From an uncultured Candidatus Saccharibacteria bacterium (GTDB taxonomy: Bacteria; Patescibacteriota; Minisyncoccia; Phycocordibacterales; GWA1-40-21), in assembly GCA_964605355.1 (NCBI GenBank), contig CAZSCE010000001.1, positions 103 to 64,102 on the forward strand: a stretch of DNA of 64,000 bases, given 5' to 3'. Below the pieces are notes generated by a model that was not told the origin of the DNA, made no database searches, and was given only the letters and a program-made list of their open reading frames with translations. This document shows, one piece after another, positions 3,242 to 60,821 of the stretch (its first letter is position 1; the number at the start of each line of letters is the position of its first letter). Made by a program: the position numbers and the translations under genes.

Positions 3242-4051
3242 TTATTTATCTAAAATTATTTCCACAAAACTTAACTCAGAAATATTAACCGGGCTTTTAA
3301 AAAGAACAGTTTGGGTTGAATCTTTATCTTTAAAATTAATTTTCTCCACAATTCCAAAAACATTGGCGGTAATAGATGGAATCACAATCACATCCCCTTC
3401 CTTTACCTCTACCTCCTTGGGAATAGAAATATTAAAATTACCGCCCCCAATTCCCACGGCCTCAACACTAACAGAGCTATTACCTAATACCACGGATAAC
3501 TTTTGCCCGGGGGTAGAATAAAGGGTAATTTTTGACATATTTGGGTATACCTCAGTCACCTCACCAATATACACATTGGCGTTAGCCACTACCCTATCAC
3601 CCACTTTTATACCCTGATCTGAGCCAATATCCACCGTGAGCATATCATAAGGGGTTTGAGGTGGTTTGACCAAAACGGCGGCTAAAACAGTTTTTTTATT
3701 AATATCTTTACGACCGAGTAAATCTTTTAAATTTTCATTTTCTGCTTGTAGTGTTTCATTTATTGCTATCAAATTTCCGGCCATAAACAGCTTTTGCTCC
3801 ATCACCAGTTTTTCATTTATTAAAGTTTGCTTAAATTTAAAATATTGAAAAAAGTTGGAATTAGTAATTGAATTCTTGATTTGCCAAATTGGAGTAGCTA
3901 TATAAAAGAGTCCTTTGCGCACTGGGCTGGAGGCGATAATCAAAATTAATATTATTAAAATAATAATAACATTTATCACCCTTTTTCTAGCATTCCTCTT
4001 TCGATCTTCAAAATTACTGCTTTTTAGGAGGTAATTCATCTTCGTTTTCAA
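3242..4051 (-). CDS. mreC: rod shape-determining protein MreC
   Basis: N-terminal TM segment, a coiled-coil region (QAENENLKDLL) and a C-terminal beta-rich domain with GDRVVA...GIVEKI-type motifs. It overlaps the 3' end of mreB by 38 nt. Confidence 0.75.
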   Translation of the reverse strand: MKTKMNYLLKSSNFEDRKRNARKRVINVIIILIILILIIASSPVRKGLFYIATPIWQIKNSITNSNFFQYFKFKQTLINEKLVMEQKLFMAGNLIAINETLQAENENLKDLLGRKDINKKTVLAAVLVKPPQTPYDMLTVDIGSDQGIKVGDRVVANANVYIGEVTEVYPNMSKITLYSTPGQKLSVVLGNSSVSVEAVGIGGGNFNISIPKEVEVKEGDVIVIPSITANVFGIVEKINFKDKDSTQTVLFKSPVNISELSFVEIILDK

Positions 4052-13230: not shown

Positions 13231-13803
13231 ATGAAGAAAAGTAATTTAGGAAAAACAGCAGTAGAAATTGTCCAAAAAGGCGTGCCGGTATTGAGAGATA
13301 CGGCCCGGAATGTTTTGGCGGAAGAAATATCGGGCCCCAAAATTCAAAAGATTATTGCTGATATGATTGCCGCCCTAGACTCTCAGGATGACGGTGTGGC
13401 TATTGCGGCCCCGCAAATTGGTGTCCCGCTCCGAATATTTGTGGTTTCCAGAAAGGCTGAATTACTAATGAAAGGCGTAGAAAATATTGCCGAGAAGGAT
13501 TTAAAGAATTTAAAATATCCAGTATATATTAATCCAGAAATCAAGAAATTATCCAGGACCAGGGTGCGCGTGGATGAAGGCTGTCTCTCTGTTCGTTATT
13601 TATATGGCAAGGTGGAAAGAGCAGAAAAGGCCACTGTCACGGCTTATGATGAAAATGGCAAGAAATTTACCAAGGGGGCTAGTGGTTTACTAGCCCAGAT
13701 ATTTCAGCACGAAATTGATCACCTAAATGGTATATTATTTATTGATAAAGCAGATGATATTGTAGAGGTTTTACCAGAAAGGAAATCACCAGATGATAAA
13801 TAA
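13231..13803 (+). CDS. def: peptide deformylase
   Basis: GVAIAAPQIGVPLRIFVV (motif 1), EGCLSV (motif 2) and QHEIDHLNG (motif 3, the metal-binding HExxH). Confidence 0.9.
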   Translation: MKKSNLGKTAVEIVQKGVPVLRDTARNVLAEEISGPKIQKIIADMIAALDSQDDGVAIAAPQIGVPLRIFVVSRKAELLMKGVENIAEKDLKNLKYPVYINPEIKKLSRTRVRVDEGCLSVRYLYGKVERAEKATVTAYDENGKKFTKGASGLLAQIFQHEIDHLNGILFIDKADDIVEVLPERKSPDDK

Positions 13804-14659
13804 AACTAATATTGCCTTTTTTGGAAATTCAAAATTCTCGGTTTTTTGTTTGGAAGAAATGAAAAATCAGGGTTTGACACCAGCGGTGGTTATTACCACA
13901 CCAGATAAACCCACGGGGCGAAAAATGCTTTTAACTAAAAGCGAAACCAAAGTGTGGGCAGAAAATAATAATGTGCCTTTCATAGAACAAGATAAATTAA
14001 AAGATGAAACTTTCCTAGAAAAACTAAAACAATATGATTTATTTCTTGTGGCCTCATACGGCAAAATCGTGCCAAAAGTTATTCTGGATATGCCTAAATA
14101 TGGTGTTTTAAACATCCACCCATCCCTATTGCCAAAATACCGCGGCCCTTCCCCACTTCAGGAACAAATTCTAAATGATGAAAAAAATGTGGGTGTGACC
14201 GTGATGCTTATGGATGAGCAAGTGGATCATGGACCAATTATTGCTCAGGAAAAACTGCCTGCCCCGAGCCTGTTGAAGGGGCCGGCTAATTTGATTGAAC
14301 TAAAAGAAATCACTGCAAAAACCGGAGTAAAATTGCTGGTAGAAAATTTAGATGCTTGGATTAATAAAAAAATAGAAGCAGAAGAGCAAGATCATGATCA
14401 AGCTACTTTTACTAAAAAGGTGGAGAAGAATGATGGTTTATTAGACCTAGAATTTGGGAAGCCTTATGAGAATTATTTAAAAACCAAGGCTTATTACCCC
14501 TGGCCCGGCACTTTCTTCTTTATTTCTAAGGGTGACAAAAAAATCCGTGTGGTTATCAAGGAATCAGAATATATTGACGGGGCCTTTCATATCCTAAAAG
14601 TTATCCCCGAAGGTAAGAAAGAAATGAGTTATGGTGATTTTCTTCGTGGTCTAAATTAA
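13793..14659 (+). CDS. fmt: methionyl-tRNA formyltransferase
   Basis: The formyltransferase N-domain (IAFFGNS...VLNIHPSLLPKYRGPSPLQ) and the C-terminal Fmt domain are present. The gene is adjacent to def, the usual def-fmt order, and overlaps it by 11 nt. Confidence 0.9.
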   Translation: MINKTNIAFFGNSKFSVFCLEEMKNQGLTPAVVITTPDKPTGRKMLLTKSETKVWAENNNVPFIEQDKLKDETFLEKLKQYDLFLVASYGKIVPKVILDMPKYGVLNIHPSLLPKYRGPSPLQEQILNDEKNVGVTVMLMDEQVDHGPIIAQEKLPAPSLLKGPANLIELKEITAKTGVKLLVENLDAWINKKIEAEEQDHDQATFTKKVEKNDGLLDLEFGKPYENYLKTKAYYPWPGTFFFISKGDKKIRVVIKESEYIDGAFHILKVIPEGKKEMSYGDFLRGLN

Positions 14660-14660
14660 A

Positions 14661-14729
14661 AAAACCTCAGGAATTTCCTCGTAGTGATTAGTCCGCGTTA
14701 AACGGAGAGGATTTTCCTGAGGTTTTTTT
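14661..14729. terminator. long bidirectional hairpin AAAACCTCAGGAA..TCCTC / GAGGA..TTCCTGAGGTTTTTTT
   Basis: An imperfect stem of about 20 bp lies between convergent fmt and the PPIase gene, with T/A runs on both sides. Confidence 0.6.
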
Positions 14730-14731
14730 GA

Positions 14732-15388
14732 TTATTTTACAATCACCTTTGTCACAATAACTGGTGTGAGTGGTAAATCATTTTGACCAGTTTGGGAATT
14801 TTCAATTTTTTCCACCACATCCATACCTGCCGTCACCTTACCAAACACAGTGTGTTTACCAATGAGCCATGGTGTCTCTAGTGCAGTGATAATAAAGAAT
14901 TGGCTACCGTTAGTATTTGGACCAGAATTTGCCATAGCTATCATACCCTTTACCATTGGTAAACTATTTGGCTCATCGGCAAACTTATAACCAGGACCAC
15001 CAGTACCATAAACAGAGGCATCATCACCCTTGGTATATGGATCCCCGCCTTGGATCATAAAACTCTTGATCACCCGGTGAAATTTGGTATTATCATAAAT
15101 ACCGTCTTGAGCTAGCTTTACAAAGTTAGCCACTGTCTTTGGTGCCTTGGCCGGATAAAGCTCTAAATCAATATTTCCTAAACTGGTTTCTATAGTTACT
15201 AATTGTTTTACTTCGGCCATAACTTTTATTGTTTTAACTTCTTTATTTTCTATTAAAGCGGTTGACGTTCCGGTTTGAGAAGCAGGTTTACTTACGCCGG
15301 AGGCATAACCAATTACTAAAACGATAATCACAATAACTATCACATAAAAAATTGCCCCTGGATTAATTATTTTTTTCCAATCTTCCAT
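14732..15388 (-). CDS. cyclophilin-type peptidyl-prolyl cis-trans isomerase, membrane-anchored
   Basis: N-terminal TM helix, then HRVIKSFMIQGGDP...GTGGPGYKFADE...FFIT...HTVFGKV, the cyclophilin signature. Confidence 0.85.
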   Translation of the reverse strand: MEDWKKIINPGAIFYVIVIVIIVLVIGYASGVSKPASQTGTSTALIENKEVKTIKVMAEVKQLVTIETSLGNIDLELYPAKAPKTVANFVKLAQDGIYDNTKFHRVIKSFMIQGGDPYTKGDDASVYGTGGPGYKFADEPNSLPMVKGMIAMANSGPNTNGSQFFIITALETPWLIGKHTVFGKVTAGMDVVEKIENSQTGQNDLPLTPVIVTKVIVK

Positions 15389-21668: not shown

Positions 21669-21725
21669 AAGGTGTATATTACACGATTTTTAAATAAATG
21701 CAAGAACAAGGCAATAATTGTTTGA

Positions 21726-21779
21726 TTTTAAAATGTCTGGTTGAGCCGTTCTATGGGCGACCCGAGGACTTTTAAAATT
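21726..21779. repeat. left copy of a roughly 54-bp inverted repeat pair flanking rmuC (partner 22940..22994)
   Basis: TTTTAAAATGTCTGGTTGAGCC...GGCGACCCGAGGACTTTTAAAATT is the reverse complement of 22940..22994 at about 45/54 positions. The divergence is confined to the central 9-10 nt. Confidence 0.8.
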
Positions 21780-21802
21780 AAATAATTATTGCCCTGTTCG
21801 TA

Positions 21803-22864: not shown

Positions 22865-22939
22865 ATGTAGAGTATTATACCAATTAAAGGCAAAATGTGA
22901 TAGTATTTTAAGTATATAAGCACGGAAGTAAAGATGTTT

Positions 22940-22994
22940 AATTTTAAAAGTCCTCGGGTCGCCAACAGTAAGGCTCAACCAGACATTTTAAAAT
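22940..22994. repeat. right copy of the inverted repeat pair flanking rmuC
   Basis: See 21726..21779. It lies about 75 nt upstream of the inferred rmuC start and promoter. Confidence 0.8.
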
Positions 22995-23027
22995 CAAACC
23001 TCTCTACTTCCTTAATAATATATTACG

Positions 23028-47646: not shown

Positions 47647-48396
47647 ATGCTACCAATAATTCTTTCATCCCTGGTTATAATGCTGGCTTCCTTGATTGGG
47701 GTGATTTCTGTTTGGAAAAATCTGGGGCAAATTATTGAGAGAAATTTACACTTTTTAGTCAGTTTCTCGGCTGGGGTCTTTCTTTATATTTCCTATGAAT
47801 TATGTCTGGAAACTATTCACGAGGCTCCCACAATTCAGAACGGTTTCTTATGGATTCTGGTTGGTATTTTTGGAGTCTGGTTAATTTTTAAATTACTCCC
47901 CACTTTTCACCACCATCATGACAATGAAACAGAGATTCACGTTCACTCTCAGATTGATGCCCGAAAAATATTGATTAGTGATGGTTTACACAATATTGGT
48001 GATGGTATTTTACTAGTCACATCTTTTACTGTCAGCTTGACCCTGGGTATGGTGGCCACCTTAAGTATTTTTGTTCATGAAATAATCCAAGAAATCTCAG
48101 AATTTTTTGTTCTTCGCGGGGCTGGTTATTCTGTGAGGAAGGCTCTTATTACCAGCTTTGCTATTTCCAGCACCATTTTGATTGGCTCTGTTGGTGGTTT
48201 ATTTTTATTAGACAATTTTAAAGTATTTGAAATCCCCCTCCTGGGCCTAGCCGCTGGTTCATTTTTAATGGTGGTTATCCAAGATCTCATCCCCCATTCT
48301 ATAAAAGTTTCCACCAGCCGCGCCCACATTATAAAACACCTTGCCTGGTTTTTAGCCGGCCTATTAATTATGATAGGGCTGAGTACTATTAGTTAG
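47647..48396 (+). CDS. zupT: ZIP-family metal transporter (ZupT-like)
   Basis: TM protein with a His-rich loop (HHHHDNETEIHVH) and the ZIP signatures LHNIGDGIL and VHEIIQEISEF. Confidence 0.75.
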   Translation: MLPIILSSLVIMLASLIGVISVWKNLGQIIERNLHFLVSFSAGVFLYISYELCLETIHEAPTIQNGFLWILVGIFGVWLIFKLLPTFHHHHDNETEIHVHSQIDARKILISDGLHNIGDGILLVTSFTVSLTLGMVATLSIFVHEIIQEISEFFVLRGAGYSVRKALITSFAISSTILIGSVGGLFLLDNFKVFEIPLLGLAAGSFLMVVIQDLIPHSIKVSTSRAHIIKHLAWFLAGLLIMIGLSTIS

Positions 48397-48436
48397 TTAA
48401 TAAAATTCACAGAATAATATGATTTTGGAGACGTAA

Positions 48437-48642
48437 AATTAAACGTAACCAGAATACAGTGCTAGAGGAGGCTTGGGAGCGCGACGGCGCGAGTTGAGAT
48501 TTGGGGAGGGACCCAAATGAAAGACCTTGAATGTTTTGTATTCAAAATGTGAAAGGTGTACTGTCCCTGTAAGGGACGAGGAATTTTTTAGCAAAAAAAT
48601 ATCCGTGCTCCGGTTAGTACTGTATTCTGGTTACGTTTAATT
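48437..48642. mobile_element. MITE-like element: 24-bp perfect terminal inverted repeats around a roughly 158-bp G+C-richer core
   Basis: AATTAAACGTAACCAGAATACAGT (48437..48460) is the exact reverse complement of 48619..48642. The core contains internal hairpins (GTCCC-tgtaa-GGGAC). The element touches the stop codon of the adjacent gene. Confidence 0.55.
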
Positions 48643-49299
48643 ACAGTAAAGGTACGACTCTGGGATTTCTTTTAGAATTTGGGCGGGCATTTCCGTTAAA
48701 GGTAAATCTTCATTTTGAAGTTTAATAATTATTTCCTTTTTAGATTCCCCAAAAGCAAAAGTGTAAGCCACAGTAATATTCTTTATTGTTTTTAAAGTGA
48801 GAGTAATGCGCCTAAACTTTCCACCATCATAACCACTAGCGGTAGCTTGATCTTTGACCCCCACGGTACCAGGCAAAACCCCGGCTGTATGCCCATCAGT
48901 GCCCAGACCAAACTGCCCTACCACCACCTCGGCCCAAGCTGTCAGATCCCGATATTTCTTGCCAAAATAGATTACTGTTTCCTTTAATTCCAAATCATTT
49001 AAAACCGGCACTGCCTGCACAGCGTCAAAATCAAAACCTGCCTCCCCCAGCTGCTGCCAATTTGAATCAGCGTGGCCCACGGGACCATGGCGCTCATCAG
49101 TGAGAGTCACCGCTAAAATATTTTTCAATTTACCGCCAAAATCTTTTTTTAATTTTTCTAAAACCTCCACTTCAATATTTATATTTGACCCACCAGAAAG
49201 TAACCACAACACATTTTTATTTCCCTTTAAATATTTCCCTATCCCCTCTACCAATATTTTCACCCCCTCCACCTCCCCTTTTATTTTTATAAATTCCAT
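48637..49299 (-). CDS. 6-phosphogluconolactonase-like (NagB/Pgl sugar-phosphate isomerase fold)
   Basis: GLGTDGHTAGVLPG matches the 6-phosphogluconolactonase G(M/L)GxDGHxASlFP box. 220 aa. Confidence 0.65.
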   Translation of the reverse strand: MEFIKIKGEVEGVKILVEGIGKYLKGNKNVLWLLSGGSNINIEVEVLEKLKKDFGGKLKNILAVTLTDERHGPVGHADSNWQQLGEAGFDFDAVQAVPVLNDLELKETVIYFGKKYRDLTAWAEVVVGQFGLGTDGHTAGVLPGTVGVKDQATASGYDGGKFRRITLTLKTIKNITVAYTFAFGESKKEIIIKLQNEDLPLTEMPAQILKEIPESYLYCN

Positions 49300-49315: not shown

Positions 49316-49360
49316 AAAAAAAGAGCGCTATCCCCACACCGGTGTGTGAAAATAGCGCTC
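49316..49360 (-). terminator. intrinsic terminator GAGCGCTAT-loop-ATAGCGCTC plus a 7-U tail (minus strand), the 3' boundary of the high-G+C island
   Basis: 9-bp stem with an internal CACACCGGTGTG palindrome and an A7 run on the plus strand. Confidence 0.7.
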
Positions 49361-49389
49361 CGTGTTGTCATAAAGAACTCCTCGTTAAC

Positions 49390-50571
49390 TCACAGAAGAG
49401 AAAGAATCAGCTCGCCCATTTCTGATGTATGCAAGAGGCTAGAACCTTTGCTGTAAACCAGTGTCAGGTTCGGATCACCACCAACATACATATCCCCCGT
49501 CCGATAGCCCTGCTTCAGAGCCTCACGAACTGCTTCCTCAATGGCTTTTGCGCCCTTCACCGCACCCAAATGCCGGAGCATCATGGCCGCCGTGAGAATG
49601 CGCCCCAGCGGATTAGTTTTGTTCTGCCCAGCCAATGTCGGAGCCGTCCCCGCACCGCTTTCAAACATCGCTGCGCCCGTGTCCGGATTGATGGCCGAAC
49701 TGCACATCATCCCCATACTGCCAAGTGCCGCCGCTGCTCCATCCGAGAGGATGTCCCCGTGCTCATTTCCACAAGCAATGACGCCGTGGAGTTTGGCCGG
49801 AGTGAACAACAGTGCATTCGCCGAGTCTACCAACTGGTGCTGGAGTGGCACGTCCGGGAATTCCGTCCTCCCGATTCTCGTGACAATCTTGCGCCAAAAG
49901 TCATACCGCGCCATCACGTTTGCCTTGTCGATGGAGATGAGAGGCAAGCCCACATCTCTCGCGTAAGTAAACGCCGCCCGGATATACTTCTCAATTGTTT
50001 CCCGGCGATAGTAGGCGATGTCAGAGACGAGCCTCTCGTCACCCGTCACACACTTCTTCAACCTGACGCCGATCCGTTCACAACCATCGCTTGGTATAAG
50101 TGACATCAGATCCTCGTTCCCGAAGTAGCTGTCCTCCAGGAGGAAGCGAATCCAAACCTGGGTGATGCCCTCGGCCGGAATTGTTTCCGGTCTGACGTTG
50201 GCCAAATGCGCCAGCTCCTTGTAGTAGATCATGGGGCGGAAGTTGAGCAACAACCCCATGTCTTTACGCAGTTTCAGCAAACACCTTGACTCCGGCTTCA
50301 TCTCCGGCTTCTCCTTGCCGATGGTGTCGTCCCACTTGGGATCACCCACGCCACCGAAGAAGATTGTGCCGATTTCAACCGCTCTTTTCAGAGACGCTTC
50401 CGGCCGTGTGTCGCCAAACTTTTCGTAGGCGCTCCACCCCATCGGAGTCTTTTCAAAAGCGATCTGGATGTTGTCCTTCTCAGCGGCCTTGATGGCAACA
50501 GCACAAGCCACCGCCATCATCTCCGGACCAGAGCCATCTCCAGTCACCAGAGCAACTGTTTTTTTTATCAT
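49390..50571 (-). CDS. 3-isopropylmalate/isocitrate/homoisocitrate dehydrogenase family enzyme
   Basis: LVTGDGSGPEMM (the GDGIGPEV box) and NEHGDILSDGAAAALGSMGMMCSSAI (the IMDH/IDH signature N-x-x-GD-I-x-SD). High G+C composition. Confidence 0.8.
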   Translation of the reverse strand: MIKKTVALVTGDGSGPEMMAVACAVAIKAAEKDNIQIAFEKTPMGWSAYEKFGDTRPEASLKRAVEIGTIFFGGVGDPKWDDTIGKEKPEMKPESRCLLKLRKDMGLLLNFRPMIYYKELAHLANVRPETIPAEGITQVWIRFLLEDSYFGNEDLMSLIPSDGCERIGVRLKKCVTGDERLVSDIAYYRRETIEKYIRAAFTYARDVGLPLISIDKANVMARYDFWRKIVTRIGRTEFPDVPLQHQLVDSANALLFTPAKLHGVIACGNEHGDILSDGAAAALGSMGMMCSSAINPDTGAAMFESGAGTAPTLAGQNKTNPLGRILTAAMMLRHLGAVKGAKAIEEAVREALKQGYRTGDMYVGGDPNLTLVYSKGSSLLHTSEMGELILSLL

Positions 50572-50645
50572 TTCGCGTTTCCTTTCTTGAGCTGTAACCC
50601 GTGGGCTGATTTTTCATGTCAACCCACGGGTTCATCTTGTTTCGC

Positions 50646-52637
50646 TTACTTCAGCAGTCCTGCTCCCTGCAGTTCCGCCGCCATCTTCACCATTACGCCG
50701 ACGCTTCCGCCGTTACGAATGAGGTCCTTCTGGTATACTGAATGATTGAAAGAAACCCCCTTCAAGCCAACACAGTTGCCAGAGCAACTAGTACTCGGGT
50801 CCATCTCCCAACCTATTGTGCCTTTCTCCCAATCAACACTAATCACTTCAGGCTTCTCGGCGAAGATAGAAGCGATTGTCTCTTTTGGAAGCGTAATGCA
50901 CAACAGTCCGTTGGCAAACATGTTGTTCTCAAAGATGCGAGCAAAGCTCGGTGCAATGACGCACCGAATACCCGCACCCTCGAGTGCCCAAGGCGCATGT
51001 TCACGAGATGAACCGCAACCAAAGTTCTCACCCGCTACCAGTATCTGTGACCCAAAGAGCTTGGGCCAGTCCGCCGACGAAATCGGCGCATCCTCGAGAC
51101 AGTGTTGGCCAAAAGCCTTCTTGTCTGTCTCGGTCAAATACTTGGCCGGAATGATCTGATCAGTATCTACGTTGGCCACCGGCAGGTAAAACACCTTACC
51201 GGAAAAATCCTTCGTCTCCCCCACTCCGAAGAGCTCGAGAAGCTGGCCGTAGTCCGGCCGTTGTGAAGGAACTTCTTTCCAACCCGTGATGCTGGTCAAT
51301 TTCGGAACCGACATCAAACTCACTTCGCGCGCGACCAATCGACAAGTATCTTCAGTTGCCTCTGATACCACTCCGTTGATAGCAGTTTTCGCCGCCGTCG
51401 CCGGTGATGCCAGATGCACCATACCATCCTTGCCCATGCGTCCCGGGAAATTGCGATTCGTCGTCGAAACGCAAACTTCTCCTGGAGCAATCACCCCACA
51501 ACTCATTCCCAGGCAGGCACCGCAAGTGGGACCGCTCACGAAACACCCCGCGTTAGCGAAGATTCCAAACAGCCCTTCCTCAAGTGCCATCTCCCAGATA
51601 TGCTGAGTGGCTGGAACTACAATGCAACGAATATTGTCTGCCACCGGGCGCCCCATCAAACGAAAGATTGTTGCGGCAATCCGCAAATCTTCCAACCGTC
51701 CGTTCGTGCAAGAGCCGATGTAGACCTGGTCAACTTTCTTGCCGGCCAAGTCACTCACCTTCTTCACACAACCTGGTGAATACTCGTCAGTGATGACAGG
51801 AACCATGTCCGAGGCATCAATCTCGATCACCTGATCGTAGACCGCATCCGGATCACTATTCCAGTAGTCGCCCATAAGATAATTCCCAACCTCGAGATTC
51901 TCATGAACTAGGCGCCGGTATCCCGACCCAAGATAATCCATGGTGGTTTGATCCACCATCATCATCCCGGACGTTGCACCTGCTTCCACCGCCATGTTGG
52001 TGATGGTCATCCGCGCTTCCATACTCATCTCATCAATGACTGGGCCACCAAATTCCAACACCGCGTTGGTGGCGCCCTTCACACCAATCTTGCTGATCAG
52101 CGTGAGGATGAGATCTTTGGCGTAAACATTCGCTGGCAATGCGCCGGTGAAGTTCACCCGAATGACTTTCTGAGGTGGACAGATCCAGAGACCGGTTATG
52201 ATGCCGTTCTCCACTTCTGTCGTACCGACACCCGCCGTCAAAGCACAAAAAGCGCCGTGCGTGCAGGTGTGGCTGTCACCCATGATTCCGATCTGGCCCG
52301 GTTTGATCCAGCCCTTCTCAGGAATGACGGCGTGACAAACGCCGTTGCGACCGACGTCCAAAAACTCGATCCCGTGTTCCCGGCTCCAGTTGCGGACAAT
52401 CTGACCTTGAAGGGCCGAAGCCGTATCCTTGGCCGGATTGACGTGATCAATCATGGTCTTGACCTTGTTCGGGTCAAAAACCACATCGCACCCGCGAATC
52501 TTGGCGTCCAGGATAGCGTTTGGTGTCGTAATCTCATGACCCCAAACCCAATCCAGCTGAAGAACCATCCGGCCATCCGGCAAGGTCTTCACACAATGTG
52601 TATCCACGATTTTCTGAAACGCTGTCTTTCCGTTCAT
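50646..52637 (-). CDS. fused aconitase-family dehydratase (LeuC-like large plus LeuD-like small subunit)
   Basis: GVCHAVIPEKG, IGSCTNGRLEDL and the C-terminal GENFGCGSSREHAPWAL. 663 aa, matching the sum of the two subunits. High G+C composition. Confidence 0.8.
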   Translation of the reverse strand: MNGKTAFQKIVDTHCVKTLPDGRMVLQLDWVWGHEITTPNAILDAKIRGCDVVFDPNKVKTMIDHVNPAKDTASALQGQIVRNWSREHGIEFLDVGRNGVCHAVIPEKGWIKPGQIGIMGDSHTCTHGAFCALTAGVGTTEVENGIITGLWICPPQKVIRVNFTGALPANVYAKDLILTLISKIGVKGATNAVLEFGGPVIDEMSMEARMTITNMAVEAGATSGMMMVDQTTMDYLGSGYRRLVHENLEVGNYLMGDYWNSDPDAVYDQVIEIDASDMVPVITDEYSPGCVKKVSDLAGKKVDQVYIGSCTNGRLEDLRIAATIFRLMGRPVADNIRCIVVPATQHIWEMALEEGLFGIFANAGCFVSGPTCGACLGMSCGVIAPGEVCVSTTNRNFPGRMGKDGMVHLASPATAAKTAINGVVSEATEDTCRLVAREVSLMSVPKLTSITGWKEVPSQRPDYGQLLELFGVGETKDFSGKVFYLPVANVDTDQIIPAKYLTETDKKAFGQHCLEDAPISSADWPKLFGSQILVAGENFGCGSSREHAPWALEGAGIRCVIAPSFARIFENNMFANGLLCITLPKETIASIFAEKPEVISVDWEKGTIGWEMDPSTSCSGNCVGLKGVSFNHSVYQKDLIRNGGSVGVMVKMAAELQGAGLLK

Positions 52638-58367: not shown

Positions 58368-58407
58368 GAATGTAGTATAGCAGAAAAATAAAATAAAAAA
58401 ATACATG

Positions 58408-58446
58408 AAAAAAGGGCCGGCGCAGAAACTGGAAGCGCGCCGGCCC
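58408..58446 (-). terminator. strong intrinsic terminator GGGCCGGCGCGC-loop-GCGCCGGCCC plus a 6-U tail (minus strand), immediately upstream of the dnaX promoter
   Basis: 10-12-bp G+C stem with an A6 run on the plus strand. It ends the roughly 300-nt unassigned transcript region. Confidence 0.75.
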
Positions 58447-58727
58447 TCATACTCACCTACACGGATCCTTGTTGTGACTCACAACATTTTCCTTTCCCTT
58501 TGGGGGTTAAGGACTCTAATCTAGGATTTTGCTCCTCACTAGTGCTCGGGACTAGCTACATAGTGATTTGCGACATCTACGGCGTTTACCCCGCAGACCT
58601 AGATTGGATCACCTCCTTTCTTGTGTTATTGTCCCGCCCGCGAAAATTGTGAACTGTTCTGCTGTACAGTGTATTCCTATTTTTTAAAAATGAAAAGGGT
58701 AAATTAAAATAACCTGTGGATAAAGGT

Positions 58728-58856
58728 AAAAAGAAGCGGGCAGTTCCAGAAGGAACTGCCCGCGATCTAACCAATATGGTTTTCTGATGGACCTTCCATG
58801 GTCAACCCCCTTTCATAGCTGTGTACTGTTACTGCCACTCCTGTGGCGACCTTAGA
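58728..58856 (-). ncRNA. candidate small RNA of about 130 nt: consensus promoter, three hairpins, intrinsic terminator
   Basis: Promoter TTGACA (58885..58890, overlapping the dus stop), a 16-nt spacer, then TATACT (58863..58868). The terminator GCGGGCAGTTCC-agaa-GGAACTGCCCGC plus U-run lies at 58726..58763. Internal hairpins GCCAC-agga-GTGGC and GACC-atggaa-GGTC are present, as is a 10-codon micro-ORF with an AAGGGGG SD. Confidence 0.4.
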
Positions 58857-58886
58857 TATACAAGTATAGCATACCCACTAAAATTG

Positions 58887-60711: not shown

Positions 60712-60720
60712 ATTTCTTTA

Positions 60721-60812
60721 GAGCTCTGGTATTGTTCTAATTTTTTGTCGCGTAGGACCCACCCGTACTCGGGAAGGGTGAAGCGCAAATAATTTGAATA
60801 ATACCAGAGCTC
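60721..60812. repeat. REP/MITE-like structured element, copy 3 of 3 (core 60748..60785) between serS and the ftsQ-like gene
   Basis: GTCGCGTAGGACCCACCCGTACTCGGGAAGGGTGAAGC with arms CTAATTTTTT / AAATAATTTGAATAAT and the outer 13-bp complementary pair GAGCTCTGGTATT / AATACCAGAGCTC. Confidence 0.75.
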
Positions 60813-60821
60813 TTAATAATA

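Follow-up and report, generated by a model that had tools for sequence, protein, structure and literature searches.

What is a 206-nt segment with perfect terminal inverted repeats doing between two convergent genes of a bacterium of the Candidate Phyla Radiation (CPR; Patescibacteria), a group whose genomes are small and gene-dense and whose non-coding RNAs and small repeats are barely characterised? The segment lies at positions 48437–48642 of a 64-kb stretch of contig CAZSCE010000001.1 (this whole stretch is called the window below), from a Paceibacteria-like CPR bacterium. It occupies the gap between convergent genes for a ZIP-family metal transporter (+ strand) and a 6-phosphogluconolactonase-family protein (6PGL, − strand), in the 3′ flank of the ZIP gene. 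An earlier note, made from the letters alone, had likened it to a miniature inverted-repeat transposable element (MITE) and had offered a structured RNA with a long closing helix as the alternative. The element is a real, non-random, single-copy structured insertion. Of the two descriptions the structured RNA fits better, given G·U pairs confined to one strand, compensatory changes in one hairpin, and constraint on a related type of element. Our leading reading, which we hold tentatively, is that the element comes from a small family, not described before, of structured RNA elements that are specific to one strand and sit in 3′ untranslated regions (UTRs) or intergenic gaps. It belongs to no Rfam family and falls short of the definition of a MITE, and a new small CPR family is the best view of it.

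A direct sequence check bore out the terminal repeats: 48437–48460 (AATTAAACGTAACCAGAATACAGT) and 48619–48642 are exact reverse complements of 24 nt with 158 bp between them. The inverted repeat lengthens to 28 nt at 96% with one G·T (48437–48464 / 48615–48642), and in + strand RNA it forms a closing helix, P1, of 29 bp (48437–48465 / 48614–48642) with two G·U pairs and about 150 nt of core inside. At the base of P1 the 5′ side is A-rich and the 3′ side U-rich (AAUUAAA...UUUAAUU). A chance inverted repeat is ruled out, as no window shuffle matched it with up to 3 mismatches allowed, and the fold has z-scores against shuffles of −10.3 (+ strand) and −11.4 (− strand). The G+C-rich core claimed earlier is indeed richer than the window, but only moderately (47% for 48465–48614 against 39.5%; the arms have 32%). 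Where the earlier note had the right repeat run over four codons at the end of the adjacent gene, it covers only the Asn codon (48640–48642) and the stop codon (48637–48639) of the 6PGL gene end ...PESYLYCN*. The predicted parts of the element are these.

48437–48465, + strand: 5′ arm of the closing helix P1, perfect over 24 nt and 29 bp long if two G·U pairs are counted.
48467–48470, + strand: 5′ strand of helix P2, GGAG, within the conserved GGAGGCUU, pairing with CUCC at 48608–48611.
48472–48498, + strand: H1, a CUUGG/UUGAG outer helix (three G·U) around a GCGC-GACG-GCGC hairpin.
48499–48518, + strand: H2, hairpin AUUUGGG-GAGGGA-CCCAAAU, window-specific and missing from the L011-type element described below.
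48522–48559, + strand: H3, the central hairpin, with GA/GA internal loops, window-specific.
48562–48578, + strand: H4, hairpin UGUCCCU-GUA-AGGGACG, followed by AGGAAUUUUUU.
48580–48604, + strand: H5, A/U hairpin GGAAUUUUUU-AGCA-AAAAAAUAUCC with a bulged A, kept in the window, L011 and L216.
48608–48611, + strand: 3′ strand of P2, CUCC, inside the conserved GYRCUCY motif.
48614–48642, + strand: 3′ arm of P1, its last 6 nt being the Asn and stop codons of the − strand 6PGL gene.

The apical loop of H3 falls at the exact midpoint of the 206-nt element. Internal hairpins noticed earlier are present, including GTCCC-tgtaa-GGGAC (H4, 48562–48578) and GCGC/GCGC (48479–48490); the proposed stem extension GGAGCGCG/CGTGCTCC can pair, but the minimum-energy fold prefers GGAG/CUCC together with the local GCGC hairpin. 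A terminator scan flagged H4 and its U run as the sole terminator-like site within the element. The core also holds an open reading frame (ORF) of 11 codons (MKDLECFVFKM*, 48517–48552, + strand) with GGAGGG 6 nt before its AUG. Coding potential was considered and rejected, because neither this frame nor a 51-aa TTG-start ORF on the − strand is conserved in the L011-type element, and the 11-codon ORF, having no counterpart there, is probably fortuitous.

Related elements were found at the same junction in a few relatives, whose loci are given here by handles such as L011. A 123-nt element occupies the junction in L011, L012, L220, L221 and L222 (L012 and L222 being other copies of L011), and L216 carries a partial L011-type element cut by the contig end. 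The arms of this type are 25–29 bp and of different sequence (AAAAATACCCAAGTAATAT...), so the long arms of family members differ in sequence with full pairing retained. What is conserved lies in the core, namely GGAGGCUU, the GGAG/CUCY helix, a GC hairpin, and the A/U hairpin, whose AGYA loop and bulged A are kept; the GGAG/CUCY pairing is the one common to the window element and L011. Directly after the 5′ arm both have AGGAGGCTT, which is absent elsewhere in the 92 loci compared, and AGGAGGCUU likewise trails the 5′ arm in these two and nowhere else in that set. In L011 the counterpart of H1 reads CUU..GGC-GGGUA-GCC..GAG, and the L011 type resembles a minimal version (P1, P2, H1, H5) to which the window copy adds the three hairpins H2–H4. 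A 28-nt block spanning H5 aligns between the window and L011 with a score of 26, against 14.4±2.3 for shuffles (0/500), and the window and L216 align locally with a score of 27 against 15.2±2.5 (2/3000). The similarity of the cores is significant on the ZIP-sense strand only, with the cores of the window, L011 and L216 in the same orientation relative to ZIP. The 5′ arms of the window and L011 are not significantly alike (16 vs 13.5±2.2, reached by 509/3000 shuffles).

Three lines of evidence bear on whether this structure is selected. Comparison of three sequences shows that both partners differ in four of the ten H5 pairs, yet 100% of cells are paired; as a control, a shift of the 3′ partners by 1–3 columns lowers pairing to 45–60%. 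RNAalifold predicts H5 independently, and the inner arm pairs show 2 compensatory changes. Wobble pairs are strictly one-sided: the window element has 8 G·U in the ZIP sense and 0 on the opposite strand (−94.5 vs −74.8 kcal/mol), and the L011 element has 4 and 0 (−51.0 vs −38.5 kcal/mol), so that all 12 G·U pairs of the two full-length elements lie on the ZIP-sense strand, with energy gaps of 20 and 12.5 kcal/mol. In these predicted folds the bias suggests a function in single-stranded form, probably as RNA. Finally, an alignment of L011 with L220 over 1359 positions has 78 differences (5.7%), and the 177 nt at L011 3619–3795, which take in the whole element, show 0 differences where about 10 are expected (P roughly 3e-5), so the L011-type element is under apparent purifying selection. 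Together the H5 changes, the strand bias and the L011/L220 constraint point to a selected, single-strand-specific structure, for which an RNA of the ZIP sense is the simplest reading.

The window copy has a further part, which lies outside the terminal repeats.

48397–48436, + strand: 40-nt spacer, homologous to the L011-type 5′ arm plus GGAG, with no pairing partner in the window.

In the ZIP sense this spacer aligns with the L011 element at a score of 36 against 17.1±2.6 (0/3000), and the alignment starts right at the ZIP stop, covers the arm and finishes with GGAG. It follows that the homologous unit has limits other than the 24-nt repeats; the element measures about 250 nt if the upstream remnant is counted. 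By this alignment, the window copy has gained a new stem beside an abandoned old arm. The 3′ arm of the new stem resembles the 3′ ends of ZIP genes of the window type (L009, L013 and L018; 19–22 vs about 11–12±2.3, 8–13/2000), with no such similarity to the other ZIP subtype; if the likeness is true, the stem would have been built from local host sequence, which is suggestive only. At the other gene, a 6PGL C-terminus (C/S)N(Y)* is common to the three element-bearing lineages and missing in their sisters, and this common C-terminus suggests that the element may have brought the 6PGL stop codon along.

The state of the junction was compared across relatives with the order 6PGL >< ZIP – 71-aa gene – LexA – PAP2. 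In the window the two convergent genes are as follows.

47647–48396, + strand: ZIP-family metal transporter gene, an ORF of 249 aa; Pfam Zip was assigned on the gene calls of orthologues.
48637–49299, − strand: 6PGL (Glucosamine_iso) gene, 220 aa, convergent with ZIP.

The window ZIP protein has 72% identity to the ZIPs of L009, L013 and L018 and ends in ...GLSTIS*, two codons short of the ...TISGH* of relatives; its 6PGL neighbour ends in YLYCN*, as in L216, where most relatives have YLYSDQI* or YLYY*. Homologues of this 6PGL come from uncultured Patescibacteria, with source names that include Paceibacterota, Taylorbacteria and Saccharimonadales. The wider gene order leuCD – leuB – 6PGL >< ZIP – 71-aa gene – LexA is common to several metagenomic relatives. 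In about nine syntenic relatives the ZIP and 6PGL ends either overlap or are separated by no more than about 35 nt, and these are empty sites.

P0002 contig (84% identical 6PGL, from a sample that also yielded one copy of the window contig): 11-nt overlap.
L009: 17-nt overlap.
L010: 4-nt overlap with a common TTAA, the empty site reading AATTAA.
L013 (full leuCD-leuB-6PGL-ZIP synteny of the window): gap of about 15 nt.
L018: gap of about 35 nt.
L213: 20-nt gap.
L214/L215: 11-nt overlap.
L217/L218/L219: 22-nt gap.

Compared with these junctions, the 206-nt segment is evidently a lineage-specific insertion into a normally tight convergent junction, and the tight state is taken as ancestral because the most distant relative, L018, has it. 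A spacer conserved in all relatives is ruled out by the empty sites. The recent mobile insertion of the earlier note thus survives as an insertion relative to most syntenic relatives, and its MITE-defining features are unsupported. The note had also named the pattern that would make the segment a conserved structured spacer, a single copy with orthologues in all relatives; the copy has so far proved single, but orthologues are present only in a few relatives.

Other material has also entered this locus. L015 has at its ZIP/6PGL junction (674–1112) an unrelated 440-nt insert with no Rfam match, which carries a Shine-Dalgarno sequence with a mini-ORF of 7 codons (AAGGAGGttcaaATGATTCGTATGATTTCCCGCTAA), and a terminator hairpin rich in G+C (1080–1105); non-coding inserts seem to favour this junction. 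Beyond 6PGL, leuB and a fused leuCD (49390–52637) have 54% G+C, against 38% for window positions 1–49000. In L222 they lie between a 44-aa gene and 6PGL, and L010, L214 and L217 are without the pair; all element-bearing lineages have leuB/leuCD, as do two element-free ones. The pair looks like a patchily distributed island. An ordinary short terminator lies nearby, at 49322–49361.

Searches for further copies were made at several levels. Pattern search, BLAST with word size 7 and a core covariance model with filters off each find the element once in the window, and the one other copy retrieved is an identical locus in a second sample (L001). The terminal repeat recurs nowhere else in the 64 kb with up to 3 mismatches, so no autonomous partner is marked there. 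A 20-mer of the repeat had 0 matches in the metagenome contig collection, and an 18-mer had seven scattered single matches among 185,579 species genomes, all in unrelated taxa and none with a second arm; these seven are chance. The additional copies that BLASTN with the repeat or core was expected to turn up were thus not found, the window holding one and the 18-mers elsewhere being chance, and no transposase-like Pfam domain occurs among the annotated neighbouring genes; no REP-associated tyrosine transposase (RAYT) is associated. The L011-type element likewise has one copy in 20.7 kb of its genome. A covariance model of the shared core (R1) was run on the window, the 91 relatives' loci (358 kb) and L222 (20.7 kb around L011) and found only the known members, with weak and unconvincing matches at window 58677–58779 (17.8 bits) and L222 17937–18005 (16.9 bits).

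Known RNA families gave equally little. With permissive filters, Rfam 15 had no match overlapping the core (48465–48614) at E≤10, in agreement with the earlier failure to recognise a signature of signal recognition particle (SRP) RNA, 6S RNA, transfer-messenger RNA (tmRNA) or RNase P. Those four, HEARO and the known ribozymes were rejected on this ground. Across the whole window only two tRNAs reach the gathering threshold and no 6S RNA was found; a tRNA/tmRNA scan of the window returned two unrelated tRNAs only, and Rfam at E≤0.1 on nine relatives' loci gave no match. In viral contigs a loose core motif had at least 120 matches, none with flanking arms, and a tighter H5–P2 consensus had 0; BLAST against phages and plasmids gave no match. 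Literature searches on MITEs or structured RNAs of CPR bacteria gave nothing relevant.

How might such an element act? Transcription, termination or stabilisation, and RNase III processing are steps that we infer, as follows. The element would be read through from ZIP as its 3′ UTR, and the transcript would fold so that the 29-bp P1 closes a five-hairpin core. P1 could then serve as an insulator between the convergent units, at once a bidirectional terminator and a 3′-end stabiliser; AAUUAAA and UUUAAUU(UU) flank P1, and the 'loop' is 150 nt. As about 29 bp of near-perfect double-stranded RNA, P1 is also a likely RNase III substrate, and a cut there would free the core of about 150 nt as a discrete small RNA. 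Either role, insulator or processing stalk, or both, may apply.

Several points weigh against the structured-RNA reading. The family is tiny (two full-length types and one partial) and its covariation statistics are weak, with 8 of 500 shuffles matching the observed value. Hairpins of single-stranded DNA tolerate G·T wobbles too, so strand bias alone is no proof of RNA. The promoter and terminator scan found no promoter-like site beside the element; termination at H4 and its U run would leave the 3′ arm untranscribed and the structure truncated, and with a loop of about 150 nt the element is very unlike a canonical intrinsic terminator. The composite make-up of the window copy, with its unpaired L011-like remnant outside the stem, points to rearrangement at the DNA level. 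The 6PGL tree, moreover, puts the element-bearing lineages in three clades, each with an element-free sister. Such patchiness implies repeated gain (mobility or transfer) or many precise losses, and gain or transfer is the implied course because repeated precise loss restoring overlapping ORFs is unlikely.

That tree is one of the observations that favour a MITE or other small mobile element inserted at a TTAA or TAAT of the common gene ends, an origin that we consider rather unlikely on balance. The terminal repeats are perfect over 24 nt, most relatives have empty sites, and the three clades, each with its element-free sister, make the distribution patchy. TTAA or TAAT borders the repeat, with AATTAA at the empty site of L010 and TAAT(T) bracketing the L011 element. 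Two Logan contigs break inside the L011-type element (L012 with its end at 3750, L216 at 2224), as assemblies do at repeats; these breaks may reflect a repeat, or a hairpin-induced problem of assembly or coverage. A multi-copy family of small hairpins (GTCTGGTT...CGAGGAC) does exist in this genome, and in one variant of the idea the conserved core is the mobile part, landing in a hairpin or making one from local sequence. Yet there is one copy in 64 kb and one of the L011 type in 20.7 kb; the repeat is without matches in metagenome contigs and has chance singles only in species genomes; and no second terminal-repeat site in the window marks an autonomous partner. Members have the core in common and not the arms, the reverse of transposase-defined families. 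Homology straddles the repeat boundary, 48397–48436 outside it matching L011 and the inside matching the rest, and the 3′ arm is similar to the end of the host's ZIP gene. TTAA stands at 48439–48442 and 48637–48640, and TTAA, TAAT or AATT can be read at both element ends, but each candidate duplication is palindromic or internal to the repeat and inseparable from it; an alternative 8-nt direct repeat, AGTACTNT at 48385–48392 and 48616–48623, would shift the element boundaries. One-strand G·U is also unexpected for double-stranded transposase binding sites. A simple nested MITE with a TTAA duplication was rejected, since the spacer beyond the repeats is homologous to the L011 arm.

The window copy could also be a functionless palindrome, which replication template switching or inverted local duplication made where a junction was rearranged, and which owes its perfection solely to its recent origin. 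We regard this as improbable. The 3′ arm is like an ancestral ZIP 3′ end, in which case the 5′ arm would be an inverted copy of local DNA; the unpaired remnant of an older arm adjoins, and a GGAG(A/G)C direct repeat lies on both sides of the new 5′ arm. A by-product of this kind does not account for core motifs and compensatory H5 changes kept across lineages whose 6PGL is 65–68% identical, for an L011-type element unchanged against 5.7% flank divergence, or for a strand that bears, over two elements, twelve G·U but not a single A·C equivalent. Very improbable, in our estimate, is an inverton, in which the 24–28-nt inverted repeats would be recombination sites around about 150 bp of invertible DNA. 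Inverton finders seek just this geometry, an intergenic pair of perfect inverted repeats with about 150 bp between them, and the unrelated GTCTGGTT...CGAGGAC element is oppositely oriented at one locus in L217 and L222; but the window and L001, independent assemblies, have the same orientation, the cores of the window, L011 and L216 are all oriented alike relative to ZIP, the site at convergent 3′ ends offers no obvious target for a promoter flip, and no invertase gene is adjacent. A highly divergent housekeeping RNA, such as 6S RNA, we rate no higher: the long closing helix and the symmetric layout with a central hairpin would suit it, 6S is poorly detected in CPR bacteria, and none is detected anywhere in the window, yet Rfam has no match over 48465–48614 even at E≤10, the L011-type relative is without the central hairpins, and the element is missing from the locus in most close relatives. 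Two further candidates were rejected outright. The integron attC site has an R′ core consensus of GTTRRRY, which the arm GTTACGT does not match, and ZIP lies in conserved synteny and is not a cassette; a retron or group II intron has no adjacent reverse transcriptase here.

A broader idea, doubtful but worth stating, is that CPR genomes hold a class of stem-embedded elements, in which a short conserved core is kept inside a long complementary stem of local, variable sequence. They may be mobile elements that build or re-build a closing stem from target DNA, an idea raised because the 3′ arm resembles the ZIP end and an older arm lies abandoned alongside; or they may be RNase III-processed small RNAs with fast-evolving processing stalks. 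A conserved core within a stem that varies but stays complementary recurs in this lineage, in the ZIP/6PGL family, in the GTCTGGTT...CGAGGAC family and in other long intergenic hairpins, and this recurrence counts in favour of the structured-RNA reading.

The window has at least four further long-stem hairpins with G+C-richer cores, at 14654–14733, 21704–21799, 22930–23005 and 60714–60819. The second and third (+ and − sense, respectively) belong to the GTCTGGTT...CGAGGAC family, found also at L217 594–628, L218 234–268, L219/L014 7–41, L214 3093–3127 and L222 5699–5753. Its 63-nt centre, GTTTGATTTTAAAATGTCTGGTTGAGCC[GTTCTATG|TTACTGTT]GGCGACCCGAGGACTTTTAAAATTAAA, has two loop variants, each shared across genomes, and is almost identical in relatives whose 6PGL is only 64–68% identical to that of the window; its outer arms vary with complementarity kept. 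The two inverted window copies flank rmuC, and the majority of copies are intergenic, on the promoter side of genes; at one and the same locus L217 and L222 have the element in different orientations, and the family has no Rfam or viral match.

Of the other two, the 80-nt hairpin at 14654–14733 (AAAAAAACCUCAGGAA...UUCCUGAGGUUUUUUU, 27-nt arms) exactly fills the gap of the convergent ORFs 13793–14659 (+) and 14732–15388 (−), and has the look of a bidirectional terminator with a long stem, analogous to the ZIP/6PGL element but simpler. That at 60714–60819 is 106 nt, with 34-nt arms (85% complementary) and a G+C-rich apex, lies between two co-directional − strand genes and is unrelated in sequence to the ZIP/6PGL element. 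In L022, a more distant relative, a 166-nt rod-like intergenic hairpin (1206–1371) has 27-nt perfect arms of unrelated sequence and folds better on the − strand (−92 vs −80 kcal/mol). The window also has a 480-nt intergenic region at 58407–58886 with GGATCACCTCCTTTC at 58607–58621, which we take to be the 16S rRNA 3′ terminus (anti-Shine-Dalgarno sequence), and a G+C-rich hairpin at 58736–58765; no rRNA genes were detected in the window, and this region gave only weak, sub-threshold Rfam matches.

If the ZIP/6PGL element acts as RNA, it represents a new motif family and a candidate means by which reduced genomes uncouple the transcription of convergent genes. A mobile element here would be a first hairpin-type example in the CPR group, with the unusual rules of variable arms and a conserved core. 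Either way, perfect terminal inverted repeats do not by themselves make a MITE.

Among known systems, the Correia elements of Neisseria are MITEs of about 100–200 bp with terminal inverted repeats of about 26 nt, many copies and a clear target duplication. The element described here is like them in its size, its terminal repeats, its intergenic site by gene ends and its variable presence among relatives, and the Correia transcript forms a long hairpin cleavable by RNase III, to which the predicted P1 is comparable. Unlike them, it has one copy, its arms vary while the core is conserved, and its putative duplication is merged with the palindrome. Structured cores with G+C above background are also a mark of Rfam families (6S, SRP, tmRNA, RNase P, HEARO/omega RNA, ribozymes), none of which matches over this core at E≤10.

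REPINs, hairpins built from repetitive extragenic palindromes (REPs), depend on RAYT transposases. REPs are about 35 nt and highly repeated, unlike this element, which is six times longer, single-copy, and has a multi-hairpin core. It resembles REPs and bacterial interspersed mosaic elements in being an extragenic palindrome in a 3′ UTR or between convergent genes, at a location that varies between strains. A precedent for the proposed insulator role comes from E. coli, where REPs in 3′ UTRs both terminate transcription and stabilise mRNA, and where their presence between convergent genes is correlated with raised expression of the pair (bioRxiv 10.64898/2026.03.23.713779). The stems of bidirectional terminators are reported to evolve by compensatory change (PMC5381666). 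With bidirectional intrinsic terminators the element shares an A-rich tract, a stem and a U-rich tract at a convergent junction; canonical terminators have a loop of 3–8 nt and a stem of 5–15 bp, unlike its 150-nt structured core with conserved motifs. RNase III processing stalks occur in rRNA precursors and at intergenic sites of phage T7. The element differs from these in not being universal, and cleavage here is a proposal from the predicted fold; it is like them in that a long near-perfect helix flanks a conserved structured RNA, the helix changing fast in sequence with its pairing kept.

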